Source: a virus (lineage: Duplodnaviria > Heunggongvirae > Uroviricota > Caudoviricetes). Taken from it: a stretch of 24,231 nt of DNA. Shown here piece after piece: positions 1 to 12,591 of the stretch. Numbering within the stretch: the first letter of the stretch is position 1; each line of letters starts with the position of its first letter. The stretch lies in the IMG/VR virus record IMGVR_UViG_2690315980_000001, one strand, 5' to 3'. The notes under the pieces are model-generated. The model had not been told where the DNA came from and searched no databases. It saw only the letters and a program-made list of their open reading frames with translations. The translations under genes and the position numbers were made by a program.

Positions 1-46
1 CTACGGGTTAAAAGCCCGTTGCTCTAACCTACTGAGCTAACGACAC
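1..46 (-). tRNA. tRNA-Lys(UUU), 5' part only, truncated by the window edge
   Basis: Identical to the matching part of the full copy at 809-885; anticodon arm ACGGG-CT TTT AA-CCCGT. Confidence 0.9.
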
Positions 47-50
47 AAAG

Positions 51-127
51 TGGCGGGTGATCTAGGACTTGAACCTAGCACCTGTTGGTTAACAGCCAAC
101 TGCTCTAACCAGATGAGCTAATCACCC
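51..127 (-). tRNA. tRNA-Asn(GUU), copy 2
   Basis: Cloverleaf; anticodon arm GTTGG-CT GTT AA-CCAAC; G73; encoded CCA. Confidence 0.95.
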
Positions 128-133
128 TAAGTT

Positions 134-209
134 TGGTTCCACCTGCTGGACTTGAACCAGCGACCTTACCCTTATCAGGGGTATGCTCTACCAACTGAGC
201 TAAGGCAGA
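134..209 (-). tRNA. tRNA-Ile(GAU)
   Basis: TACCC-CT GAT AA-GGGTA; T-arm GCTGG TTCAAGT CCAGC; encoded CCA. Confidence 0.95.
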
Positions 210-216
210 ATTAAAA

Positions 217-292
217 TGGCGGAGATGACGGGGATTGAACCCGCGACCTCTTGCGTGACAGGCAAGCGTCATAACCACTAGACTACATCTCC
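217..292 (-). tRNA. tRNA-Asp(GUC)
   Basis: CTTGC-CT GTC AC-GCAAG; acceptor GGAGATG/CATCTCC; G73; CCA. Confidence 0.95.
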
Positions 293-297
293 AAATG

Positions 298-373
298 TGG
301 AGCACTGTGGCAGATTTGAACTGCCGAATAATGGATTTGCAATCCACCCTCTTAACCACTTGAGTAACAGTGC
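298..373 (-). tRNA. tRNA-Cys(GCA)
   Basis: GTGGA-TT GCA AA-TCCAT; U73 Cys identity element; CCA. Confidence 0.95.
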
Positions 374-374
374 A

Positions 375-450
375 TGGTGCATCCTACTGGTCTCGAACCA
401 GTGACCTCTTCTTTGTAAGAGAAGCGCTCTCCCAACTGAGCTAAGGACGC
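375..450 (-). tRNA. tRNA-Val(UAC)
   Basis: CTTCT-CT TAC AA-AGAAG; CCA. Confidence 0.95.
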
Positions 451-455
451 GTAAC

Positions 456-531
456 TGGTGGAGGCAAAGGGAATCGAACCCTCGACAACTGACTTGCAAA
501 GCCAGCACTCTACCTACTGAGTTATACCCCC
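456..531 (-). tRNA. tRNA-Ala(UGC)
   Basis: CTGGC-TT TGC AA-GTCAG; G3:U70 alanine identity pair present; CCA. Confidence 0.95.
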
Positions 532-536
532 AAAAA

Positions 537-612
537 TGGTGCCTCGAAGTGGAATTGAACCACTGACGCGAAGATCTTCAATCTTCCGCTCTACCAACTG
601 AGCTATCAAGGC
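537..612 (-). tRNA. tRNA-Phe(GAA)
   Basis: GAAGA-TT GAA GA-TCTTC; CCA. Confidence 0.95.
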
Positions 613-613
613 A

Positions 614-690
614 TGGTTCCCCTTGCTGGACTCGAACCAGCGACCACATGATTAAAAGTCACATGCTCTAACCAACTGAGCTAAAGAGGA
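614..690 (-). tRNA. tRNA-Lys(UUU), second sequence type (A31-U39)
   Basis: TGTGA-CT TTT AA-TCATG; body differs from 809-885; CCA. Confidence 0.95.
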
Positions 691-728
691 ATTATTTCTA
701 AAGCACTCTCGTAAAAGCACTTGAGAAA

Positions 729-804
729 TGGCACTGCCAACGAGGATCGAACTCGTGTTACAAGCTTGAAAGGCTTGTGTCCTAACCAACTAGACGATAG
801 CAGC
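729..804 (-). tRNA. tRNA-Glu(UUC)
   Basis: CAAGC-CT TTC AA-GCTTG; short variable loop; CCA. Confidence 0.95.
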
Positions 805-808
805 GCAA

Positions 809-885
809 TGGTGTGTCGGGCAGGAATCGAACCTGCGACCTACGGGTTAAAAGCCCGTTGCTCTAACCTACTGAGCTAACGACAC
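809..885 (-). tRNA. tRNA-Lys(UUU), G31-C39 type
   Basis: ACGGG-CT TTT AA-CCCGT; U7/C66 mismatch in the acceptor stem; CCA. Confidence 0.93.
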
Positions 886-889
886 AAAG

Positions 890-966
890 TGGCGGGTGAT
901 CTAGGACTTGAACCTAGCACCTGTTGGTTAACAGCCAACCGCTCTAACCAGATGAGCTAATCACCC
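890..966 (-). tRNA. tRNA-Asn(GUU), first gene of the array
   Basis: Same as 51-127 apart from one base (tRNA position 26); CCA. Confidence 0.95.
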
Positions 967-1167
967 ATAATTTATAAGACAACTAAAATCTAATTGCCTT
1001 ATAAATTATTTTTATCTCTAAAAATAATTCAAGGTCGCCTTGGTTACAAATCAAACTATTCCCTTAAATTTAGGTGAAATGGTGTTGATTTAGCGACCTA
1101 ACCCGAATCAAGATTACAAACATTTATATTTATATACTCAATCCGAATTTTACAATCCAAGTTGTTA

Positions 1168-1271
1168 AAGAACAAAAAGCCCAGTGAAACTTAAGGAAGT
1201 CTCACTGGGCTAATCATAGCTTATGTGTAGTTTGAGACTTCCGCCTCAACCACTTTTAAGTATGAGGCAAA
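1168..1271 (-). terminator. Attenuator of leader L1: alternative hairpins plus intrinsic terminator
   Basis: Terminator AGCCCAGTGAGACTT-CCTT-AAGTTTCACTGGGCT followed by TTTTGTTCTTT (stem 1178-1211). Perfect 10-bp antiterminator GGAAGTCTCA (1233-1242) / TGAGACTTCC (1195-1204). Upstream GCCTCA/TGAGGC hairpin (1263-1268/1243-1248). Confidence 0.85.
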
Positions 1272-1397
1272 TCAAGTTGTAATTTCGATCTTATTATCCA
1301 CGTTCATTTTTTTCGCACAGCAAATATCAGCCGCAATTGCGTTAAACATCGCATCGCACTTCTCAATTTTTACTGTCGTAAATGTCGTGATAAACAT
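1272..1397 (-). CDS. Leader peptide L1, 41 aa MFITTFTTVKIEKCDAMFNAIAADICCAKKMNVDNKIEITT
   Basis: Translated by hand; SD AGGA in AGGATTTTATT-ATG; stop abuts the attenuator; not in the ORF track. Confidence 0.8.
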   Translation of the reverse strand: MFITTFTTVKIEKCDAMFNAIAADICCAKKMNVDNKIEITT

Positions 1398-1429
1398 AAT
1401 AAAATCCTGATAAATGGTTTTTTTAATAC

Positions 1430-1523
1430 AAAAAAGTCAGCTTAGCTATCGCCTCGCTGACTATATACAAGAAAATCTTGAAATCTTTGAGGCAACCCTC
1501 AAAGATACAATTATCCTGAAGGT
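1430..1523 (-). terminator. Attenuator of leader L2: alternative hairpins plus probable intrinsic terminator
   Basis: AGTCAGC(14-nt loop)GCTGACT followed by TTTTTG (1430-1462); perfect ATCTTTGAGG-GTTG-CCTCAAAGAT hairpin (1483-1506); competing CCTTCAGGATA/TATCTTTGAGG (1512-1522/1497-1507). Confidence 0.7.
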
Positions 1524-1628
1524 TTAAATATTGTTTTTACAGTCAAATTTCTTGTCTGTATTCTTCTCACAGGCAAACATATTGTCTGTGTTTGTTTCAA
1601 TCGTATTTTTCGCGATGATAATAAACAT
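1524..1628 (-). CDS. Leader peptide L2, 34 aa MFIIIAKNTIETNTDNMFACEKNTDKKFDCKNNI
   Basis: Translated by hand; SD-like AGGT upstream; same restricted amino-acid alphabet as L1; not in the ORF track. Confidence 0.75.
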   Translation of the reverse strand: MFIIIAKNTIETNTDNMFACEKNTDKKFDCKNNI

Positions 1629-1689: not shown

Positions 1690-1719
1690 ATAATAAACCT
1701 AAATGTTTTTTCAGGTCAA
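1690..1719 (-). promoter_or_regulatory. sigma70 promoter for the L2-L1-tRNA transcript
   Basis: TTGACC-18 nt-TATTAT on the minus strand, just downstream of the 1755-1786 terminator. Confidence 0.6.
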
Positions 1720-11842: not shown

Positions 11843-11911
11843 GTGAAAGCTAAAACATTTATTACCTCTAAAGTAGGTATCCAGCAACCGTGGCAACAAG
11901 CTTATGTGTAA
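11843..11911 (+). CDS. Leader peptide L3, 22 aa MKAKTFITSKVGIQQPWQQAYV (GTG start)
   Basis: SD AAGGA in AGGATTTTATT-GTG; codons CAG CAA CCG TGG CAA CAA at 11882-11899; stop lies in the first hairpin of the attenuator. Confidence 0.85.
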   Translation: MKAKTFITSKVGIQQPWQQAYV

Positions 11912-11997
11912 GTTTTAGCTTTCGCATGGCTAAAACTTAGGTTTTAGCCACAGGAAAGACACCTAACCCCTGATGGCTCTCCATCAGGGGTTTTTTT
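11909..11997 (+). terminator. Attenuator of leader L3: alternative hairpins plus intrinsic terminator
   Basis: A:B TAAGTTTTAGC/GCTAAAACTTA (11 bp); B:C TGGCTAAAAC/GTTTTAGCCA (10 bp); C:D AGCCACAGG/CCTGATGGCT; terminator AACCCCTGATGG-CTCT-CCATCAGGGGTT followed by TTTTT. Confidence 0.88.
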
Positions 11998-12116
11998 ATG
12001 CTTAAAAAATTCAGATGGAATAAAGTCAACTTATCTCTGCATATCTATGCTGGAGAGGAGGTCTTGTGGTTTTAGTGTAAGTGCTTGATTTTATTGAATT
12101 TTTTTTAATTTTCTTG

Positions 12117-12145
12117 TTGACAGATAAAATGTTCAGGTTTAATAT
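12117..12145 (+). promoter_or_regulatory. Near-consensus sigma70 promoter immediately upstream of tRNA-Pro
   Basis: TTGACA-17 nt-TAATAT. Confidence 0.75.
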
Positions 12146-12169: not shown

Positions 12170-12246
12170 CGGTGAATAGCGCAGCCTGGTAGCGCATCTG
12201 CTTTGGGAGCAGAGGGTCGAGAGTTCGAATCTCTCTTCACCGACCA
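12170..12246 (+). tRNA. tRNA-Pro(UGG), copy 1
   Basis: TCTGC-TT TGG GA-GCAGA; C1-G72, A73; CCA. Confidence 0.95.
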
Positions 12247-12257
12247 AATTATATTGT

Positions 12258-12334
12258 TGGGGTGTAGCCAAGTTGGTTTAAGGCAATAGACTTTGATTCT
12301 ATGAACGGGGGTTCAAGTCCCTCCACCTCAGCCA
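12258..12334 (+). tRNA. tRNA-Gln(UUG), copy 1
   Basis: ATAGA-CT TTG AT-TCTAT; U1-A72, G73; CCA. Confidence 0.95.
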
Positions 12335-12346
12335 GAACAACAAAGT

Positions 12347-12422
12347 GTAGAGGTAGCTCAGTTGGTAGAGCATCGGATTCCAAACCCGCTGGTCGGGGGT
12401 TCAACTCCCTCCCTCTATGCCA
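12347..12422 (+). tRNA. tRNA-Trp(CCA)
   Basis: Acceptor GTAGAGG/CCTCTAT; loop TT CCA AA; G73; CCA; anticodon stem has two mismatches. Confidence 0.88.
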
Positions 12423-12426
12423 CATT

Positions 12427-12503
12427 CGGTGAATAGCGCAGCCTGGTAGCGCATCTGCTTTGGGAGCAGAGGGTCGAGAGTTCGAATCTCTCTTCACCGA
12501 CCA
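12427..12503 (+). tRNA. tRNA-Pro(UGG), copy 2
   Basis: Identical to 12170-12246. Confidence 0.95.
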
Positions 12504-12514
12504 AATTACATTGT

Positions 12515-12591
12515 TGGGGTGTAGCCAAGTTGGTTTAAGGCAATAGACTTTGATTCTATGAACGGGGGTTCAAGTCCCTCCACCCCAGCCA
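12515..12591 (+). tRNA. tRNA-Gln(UUG), copy 2
   Basis: One acceptor-stem difference from copy 1 (C12585 vs T12328). Confidence 0.95.

Follow-up and report, generated by a model that had tools for sequence, protein, structure and literature searches.

Putative tandem leader-peptide attenuators matched in codon content to a tRNA gene array on a Vibrio megaplasmid

We present evidence that the 41-codon open reading frame (ORF) L1 likely belongs to a pair of ribosome-dependent transcription attenuators arranged in tandem (promoter, L2, terminator, L1, terminator), of which it is the second. The pair would gate an array with as many as 43 tRNA genes, carried by a low-GC Vibrio megaplasmid of about 0.9 Mb; this proposal derives from sequence comparison and RNA folding models. 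A sequence-only reading of the window (the whole 24,231-nucleotide stretch of DNA analyzed here) had put forward the idea that L1 acts over its entire length as a sensor for a whole set of tRNAs. The computational results support this idea on three counts: the amino acid alphabet of the leader and that of the array coincide (11/11), the same rule recurs at two other tRNA arrays, and the predicted switch behaves as required in folding models spanning codons 1-39.

The window aligns at 95-99.4% identity with four plasmids (0.88-0.94 Mb; GC content approximately 34%) of V. parahaemolyticus and V. vulnificus. The locus is also present on a contig of Vibrio sp. V15 (908 kb), as well as in a Logan assembly. 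Searches of PLSDB (blastn-distant and tblastn) returned these four plasmids with the locus and no others, and a protein search with L1 yielded three clusters, all at least 88% identical. Conservation was assessed on six relatives differing by about 8% across the leader region; the whole family lies at 88% identity or above, so that it affords no real covariation test and deep tests of composition are not possible. In the nearest virus record both leader regions are missing, and a search of genome contigs with the product of a neighboring gene (366 aa) detected no homologue. The window region of the plasmid encodes DHFR, xseA, UDG, IHF-alpha, nrdG and a Sir2 gene, and just past array A the sister plasmid (L001 5240-10354) carries its own smpB, a gene with a GatB/YqeY domain and a NUDIX hydrolase. 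This gene set, from smpB to the Sir2 gene, is chromosome-like or phage-like, and the replicon is typed as non-mobilizable.

The elements of the locus, all of them on the minus strand of the window, are the following:

1..966, minus: first part of tRNA array A (Asn Lys Glu Lys Phe Ala Val Cys Asp Ile Asn ...), continuing past the window edge
967..1167, minus: structured 200-nt spacer from the L1 terminator to the first tRNA gene; it includes a weak promoter-like site (1032..1005) and, adjoining tRNA-Asn, a 19-bp hairpin
1168..1211, minus: intrinsic terminator of L1, a 15-pair stem (1211..1178) and a U-rich tail; conserved
1195..1204, minus: 3′ strand of the antiterminator, UGAGACUUCC, within the 5′ arm and loop of the terminator; invariant in six relatives
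1227..1253, minus: anti-antiterminator hairpin, predicted to sequester part of the antiterminator 5′ strand and to form first as the transcript grows
1233..1242, minus: 5′ strand of the antiterminator, GGAAGUCUCA; invariant in six relatives
1263..1268, minus: segment a, GCCUCA, 4-9 nt past the stop codon; complementary to UGAGGC (1248..1243) and masked by a ribosome that has reached the final codons or the stop
1272..1397, minus: leader ORF L1, 41 codons plus TGA, 11 residue types; hypothetical protein WP_021485665.1 in a sister plasmid
1398..1408, minus: ribosome-binding region of L1, AGGATTTTATT; an identical 11-mer precedes the array-B leader
1429..1523, minus: switch region of L2, with ACCUUCAGGAUA directly after the stop codon, the hairpin CUUUGAGG/CCUCAAAG, and a 7-bp U-tailed terminator stem (1462..1435) followed by T6
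1524..1628, minus: first leader ORF L2, 34 codons plus TAA, written in a 10-letter subset of the L1 alphabet (no Val), with the Shine-Dalgarno sequence AGGT 6 nt upstream
1690..1719, minus: promoter-like site TTGACC-18-TATTAT (10/12 matches), the only candidate promoter upstream of L2 and L1

Codon content of L1 and gene content of array A

Array A comprises, within the window, 11 tRNA genes (966..51) on the same strand as L1, representing nine specificities (Asn, Lys, Glu, Phe, Ala, Val, Cys, Asp and Ile) with anticodons GUU, UUU, UUC, GAA, UGC, UAC, GCA, GUC and GAU. The ribosome-binding site of L1 (AGGA) lies 7 nt 5′ of its ATG, and the array is located downstream (966..1). Recounting the residues of L1 gave exactly the composition previously reported (M3 F3 I6 T6 V2 K5 E2 C3 D3 A5 N3), with 11 residue types, and the claim that nine of these types are the nine specificities visible in the window array was borne out by the 11 tRNA genes. 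Every L1 codon for these nine specificities can also, as had been stated, be read by the array anticodons under standard wobble rules. The reported lack of ATA codons in L1 holds as well and extends to L2, with none among the 11 Ile codons of both leaders, as compared to 23% ATA in plasmid genes, a difference that on its own is weak (P ~0.06).

Thr and Met have no tRNA gene visible in the window, and their tRNA genes are found further along the same array in sister plasmids. The array in the V. vulnificus plasmid contains 43 tRNA genes, with specificities for Asn, Lys, Glu, Thr, Met, Phe, Ala, Val, Cys, Asp and Ile, and the arrays of two V. parahaemolyticus plasmids contain 37 and 33 genes with the same 11 specificities. 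Once the sister plasmids are included, the alphabet of L1 is the full alphabet of array A (11/11). In the comparison of leader composition with array content across homologous replicons suggested by the earlier reading, the 11-letter match is kept in the 43-, 37- and 33-gene arrays and changes in L1 stay within the alphabet, with one exception: array A of Vibrio sp. V15 (L009 6425-7854) has 17 genes and no tRNA-Val, yet L1 contains three Val codons there. The spread of array sizes (17, 33, 37 and 43) reflects rapid recombination among repeat units, with arrays changing faster than leaders. The window's own array lacks a Thr-Met-Met block that in sister plasmids comes after the second Lys gene. 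A34 anticodons, which are unusual in bacteria outside tRNA-Arg(ACG), occur in these arrays in tRNA-Thr(AGU) and tRNA-Ala(AGC) (L001 11660-11735 and 13336-13411; L002 12660-12735).

The 11 residues of the alphabet make up 59% of the plasmid proteome. Taking this fraction as the base, the probability of 40 consecutive codons falling within the alphabet by chance is 7e-10, to be set against approximately 48,000 codon positions in the window. A six-frame scan of the window for uninterrupted in-alphabet runs yields L1 as the longest (44 codons, including three in-frame codons before the ATG), followed by L2 (36 codons) and then by a run of 16 codons; in the 41-kb sister locus, the next-longest run reaches 22 codons. 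Six distinct amino acid changes are seen in L1 among the relatives (I3T, D15N, A22V, A23T, C26F and K29E), and all of them remain in the alphabet. For L1 and L2 together, 7 of 8 changes are in the alphabet, as compared to an expected fraction of 0.57, a deviation that is not significant. The ratio of nonsynonymous to synonymous changes is high (8 to 3), with the alphabet kept.

The leaders (window 1275-1397, 1527-1628 and 11885-11887) over-use NNG codons that are rare in plasmid genes. GCG accounts for 4 of 7 leader Ala codons versus 11% in genes, ACG for 3 of 10 Thr codons versus 10%, and the sole Pro codon is CCG, versus 8%. All of these NNG codons are read by U34 tRNAs of the arrays, and their use may serve to tune sensitivity.

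The L1 switch and its tandem partner L2

The sequence-only reading had placed a 15-bp terminator and a perfect 10-bp antiterminator after L1, and both elements were recovered. The terminator stem (1211..1178) has 15 pairs, including one G-U, with a loop of 4 nt, and is followed by TTTTGTTCTT; it is invariant in the six relatives. The antiterminator strand GGAAGUCUCA (1242..1233) is fully complementary to UGAGACUUCC (1204..1195). All strands of the L1-switch helices are invariant in the six relatives.

The effect of ribosome position was modeled by moving the A site along the ORF and allowing the RNA to fold only from 13 nt downstream of the A-site codon. For A-site codons 1-39, the antiterminator stabilizes the terminator 5′ arm by -10 to -11 kcal/mol, and this stabilization falls to -6.5, -2.4 and -5.0 kcal/mol at codon 40, codon 41 and the stop codon, respectively. 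The full-strength antiterminator (-10.9 kcal/mol) compares with -5.4 +/- 2.2 kcal/mol in shuffled controls, with 2 of 100 dinucleotide-shuffled spacers being as strong, and the in silico loss of 8.5 kcal/mol at the last codon or stop is equaled by none of 100 shuffles. Because the antiterminator stays strong at codons 1-39, a delay anywhere in the L1 ORF would be expected to give read-through. In the model, the antiterminator persists whenever the ribosome is held up ahead of the final two or three codons, which provides a reason for restricting the composition of the whole ORF.

A minimum free energy (MFE) series computed on the growing transcript gives a similar picture. With GCCUCA free, the antiterminator is favored by about 8.5 kcal/mol just before the 3′ arm of the terminator appears, and with a ribosome on the stop codon it is favored by only about 1.4 kcal/mol; the predicted exchange of helices is seen along the path. 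The equilibrium fold of the full-length leader RNA with a ribosome mask always yields the terminator, and masking makes no difference to it, so the model relies on the usual kinetic assumption that the antiterminator forms first.

L2 displays the same layout upstream. The probability of its composition arising by chance is 3e-8, and in 4 of the 6 relatives it contains a Ser codon (Ser32), which lies outside the alphabet. The ribosome dependence of its switch is not distinguishable from that of shuffled controls, with 13 of 100 shuffles equaling it. L2 is probably an attenuator unit, weaker than L1. The promoter-like site at 1690..1719 is unchanged in the six relatives except for a T to C substitution just after the first hexamer in one of them. 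No promoter-like sites were found between L2 and L1, which implies that L1 would be transcribed only through read-through of the L2 terminator. Both ORFs and both terminators are kept across six sequences.

The spacer between the L1 terminator and the array (967-1167, minus strand) is highly structured, partly conserved and contains a long AGGUCGC/GCGACCU hairpin with a variable loop. Its 19-bp hairpin ends 2-3 nt before tRNA-Asn and shows one G-U to A-U change among the sequences compared. These structures could constitute a processing signal or a third switch.

Arrays B and C and the scattered tRNA genes

A second dense tRNA array in the window is preceded by a leader of its own:

11843..11911, plus: array-B leader, 22 codons, with QQPWQQ at 11882..11899
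11912..11999, plus: array-B switch helices and a 12-pair terminator (11965..11992) followed by T7; 100% identity among four plasmids
12117..12145, plus: near-consensus promoter TTGACA-17-TAATAT, between the array-B terminator and tRNA-Pro; conserved in four plasmids
12170..12591, plus: tRNA array B (Pro Gln Trp Pro Gln)

The chance probability of QQPWQQ is 2e-7. The first 13 codons of this leader are of unrestricted composition and do not fit the model neatly. The 227 nt of the leader region, from promoter to terminator, show no differences among four plasmids whose overall identity is about 95%. The array-B antiterminator shows a late drop in stabilization right after the last Gln codon, matched by 4 of 100 shuffles. 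An AT-rich upstream tract and a near-consensus sigma-70 promoter occupy the interval (window 12085-12145) between the array-B attenuator and tRNA-Pro. From this arrangement of sites, array B seems to be served by both direct and attenuated promoters.

The sister plasmid contains 84 tRNA genes in all. Its third dense array (array C) has 19 genes, all of them for Leu, Ser, Tyr or His, and ahead of it two mini-ORFs, MLHSYLHLSYLSLYN and MSYLSHLHYSLSYSLLST, stand in tandem. A separate terminator follows each of them, and the second terminator ends 40 nt before the first tRNA gene. Both mini-ORFs are written in L, S, Y and H except for the last codon of each (Asn and Thr), with chance probabilities of 9e-9 and 1e-10. 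In the plasmid closest to the window both array-C ORFs are present, with one synonymous change. The two leaders exhibit a late drop in stabilization, matched by 4 of 100 and 6 of 100 shuffles, respectively. The ribosome-position effect is moderate for the array-B leader and for the two array-C leaders, and not significant for L2. No promoter-like sites were found between the two array-C leaders or from the second terminator to the first tRNA gene, so the second unit would be reached only by read-through of the first. Out-of-alphabet codons occur in the tail of the leaders, where stalling is predicted to have lost its effect: as the last codon of both array-C leaders, as A-Y-V behind QQPWQQ, and, in four relatives, as Ser32 of L2.

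The scattered tRNA genes of the sister plasmid (Arg, Gly, extra Met, Ser, Asn and Lys) are not preceded by leaders and have TTGACA-type promoters of their own instead. A 60-codon ORF ending in RRR (AGA CGT AGG; L005 1401-1583), 250 nt 5′ of tRNA-Arg(ACG), was considered as a leader and rejected, given that no terminator follows it and a promoter intervenes. ARAGORN also reports, beside a tRNA-Gly, a 91-nt tRNA-like gene with a two-base anticodon call (L006 1951-2041). As a negative control, the small annotated ORFs located among the tRNA genes of Stenotrophomonas phage Mendera were analyzed, and their composition is unconstrained.

Proposed mechanism, alternatives and comparison with known attenuators

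L1 displays the sequence features of a leader-peptide attenuator (an ORF with a ribosome-binding site, matched codons, a terminator and an antiterminator), and selection between structures by ribosome position is reproduced in silico. In the mechanism we propose, a ribosome located anywhere in codons 1-39 would leave GCCUCA free to pair with UGAGGC. This pairing would release GGAAGUCUCA, which would in turn pair with the 5′ arm of the terminator and let RNA polymerase read into the tRNA genes. A ribosome reaching the last codons or the stop would instead cover GCCUCA, so that the local hairpin would hold the antiterminator strand, the 15-pair terminator would form and transcription would stop. 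The L1 ORF would thereby operate as a timer, with a delay at any of its codons, each of them read by tRNAs of the array, switching the array on. The plasmid, as its sequence suggests, probably makes the array-A tRNA set when L1 codons are read slowly, and the expected outcome is negative feedback on the supply of the array's charged tRNAs. The quantity sensed is decoding speed, that is, the supply of charged tRNA, and not amino acids as such. The other dense arrays, with matched leaders of their own (Pro/Gln/Trp and Leu/Ser/Tyr/His), would split the tRNA complement into separately gated sets. The promoter-like sites located between attenuator and array (the weak site at 1032..1005 for array A and the near-consensus site at 12117..12145 for array B) may mean that the attenuators add to direct transcription and control only part of it. 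In array C there is no room for a promoter between the second terminator and the first tRNA gene.

The same attenuator might serve mainly as a sensor of amino acid starvation, responding to uncharged tRNA for any of the 11 amino acids instead of providing feedback on tRNA abundance. The device would be identical in both cases, and leader-peptide attenuators, as established for trp, his, thr and ilv, respond both to how much tRNA there is and to what fraction of it is charged, a response that the sequence-only reading also takes for granted in predicting induction by amino acid starvation. We nonetheless consider this alternative unlikely, since starvation would not be relieved by more tRNA, leaving the output unable to correct the input, and since the genes under control encode precisely the tRNAs by which the leader codons are decoded, so that the loop closes only for tRNA supply. 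We find it harder still to credit that the leaders and terminators act other than by read-through, as stand-alone small RNAs or peptides or through transcriptional interference on downstream promoters, with the arrays driven by promoters of their own. The conserved near-consensus promoter before tRNA-Pro fits such a scheme, as does the 200-nt structured spacer with its weak promoter-like site after the L1 terminator; array C, however, has only 40 nt, with no promoter-like site, from the second terminator to its first tRNA, and the tandem units follow one another in series within a single transcript. The match in codons with the downstream array would moreover be left unexplained unless the output concerned those tRNAs.

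The explanation to which we assign the least probability is that L1 and L2 are chance ORFs or ordinary genes for small proteins, their composition being a coincidence or a product of local base composition. RefSeq does call L1 a hypothetical protein, and L1 and L2 may be paralogues (both start with MF) and thus not fully independent observations. Against this stand the chance probability for L1 alone (~7e-10), with the next in-alphabet run stopping at 16 codons, and the presence of three arrays with three alphabets and a matching leader at each. The 8 to 3 ratio of nonsynonymous to synonymous changes with the alphabet kept, and a 10-bp antiterminator and switch that outperform shuffled controls, point in the same direction, and a reading of the leaders as ordinary genes or chance ORFs is effectively refuted by the statistics.

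Beyond attenuation of array A itself, we lean, with less assurance, towards a broader interpretation in which the megaplasmid distributes the genetic code over three tRNA regulons under separate control, covering 11, 3 and 4 amino acids, with leaders whose alphabet equals that of the regulon they govern. The tandem leaders would act as whole-ORF timers with a default-on, five-segment logic, in which only timely completion of the leader shuts the array off, and they would embody a general and unpublished principle of on-demand tRNA supply in megaplasmids and giant phages. Such a supply could compensate for a mismatch in codon usage with the host (34% versus approximately 45% GC) or replace tRNAs that anticodon nucleases destroy. 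The prevailing view is that bacterial tRNA genes are regulated at the promoter, through growth rate and the stringent response, and through gene dosage. If confirmed, our results would place tRNA genes under codon-specific feedback exerted through translation itself, with one attenuator integrating 11 amino acid channels and the code divided in modular fashion into independently supplied sets. They would also offer a directly testable explanation of how a mobile element whose codon usage is foreign, or whose host tRNAs are under attack, tunes its own tRNA supply without constant expression of 80 or more tRNA genes, and would provide synthetic biology with compact natural parts in the form of codon-addressable timers. 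In full-text literature searches, and in a survey of prokaryotic tRNA arrays, we found no description of attenuator-controlled tRNA genes or of the arrays of this plasmid family.

The type of device is known, namely the leader-peptide attenuator, and what appears to be new is the use of tRNA genes as the regulated output. The similarities to the ilvGMEDA, thrL, hisL, trpL and pheL leaders comprise a short ORF with a Shine-Dalgarno sequence, control codons that correspond to the pathway under regulation, an intrinsic terminator with an antiterminator that excludes it, and a decision made by ribosome position; the array-B leader further resembles his in having an extra helix from the start of the ORF to segment 1. 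In contrast to the leaders of amino acid operons, the regulated genes here would be tRNA genes and not biosynthetic enzymes, the whole ORF is restricted and not just a codon cluster, and the units stand in tandem. The genes downstream are tRNA genes only, and in an Rfam scan no leader family reached its gathering score, with nothing above sub-threshold noise, which sets these elements apart from classical amino acid operon attenuators. The sequence-only reading had contrasted L1 with classical leaders that sense one or two amino acids, a contrast that needs correction inasmuch as the ilvGMEDA leader senses three (Ile, Leu and Val), while thrL senses Thr and Ile. To our knowledge, three amino acid types is the maximum for leader-peptide attenuators, as compared to 11 for L1. 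The parity of the switch also differs from that of trp and his: untranslated trp and his leaders terminate, whereas the five segments of L1 are predicted to give read-through when the ribosome is absent or late.

Control according to the state of specific tRNAs is itself well known from the pheST attenuator, with its pheM leader, and from T-box riboswitches, which regulate aminoacyl-tRNA synthetase genes. In those systems the output is a synthetase and not the tRNA itself, and T-boxes bind uncharged tRNA directly, with no need for a ribosome. The elements described here are built around ORFs and carry no specifier-loop or T-box signal, with no T-box match at E <= 1 in the Rfam scan. A further parallel is that of Salmonella hisR mutants, altered in the tRNA-His gene, in which the his operon is reportedly derepressed, indicating that a leader attenuator reports tRNA abundance as well as amino acid supply. 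In that case the tRNA gene is an input only, whereas in the Vibrio arrays the tRNA genes would also be the output, closing the loop.
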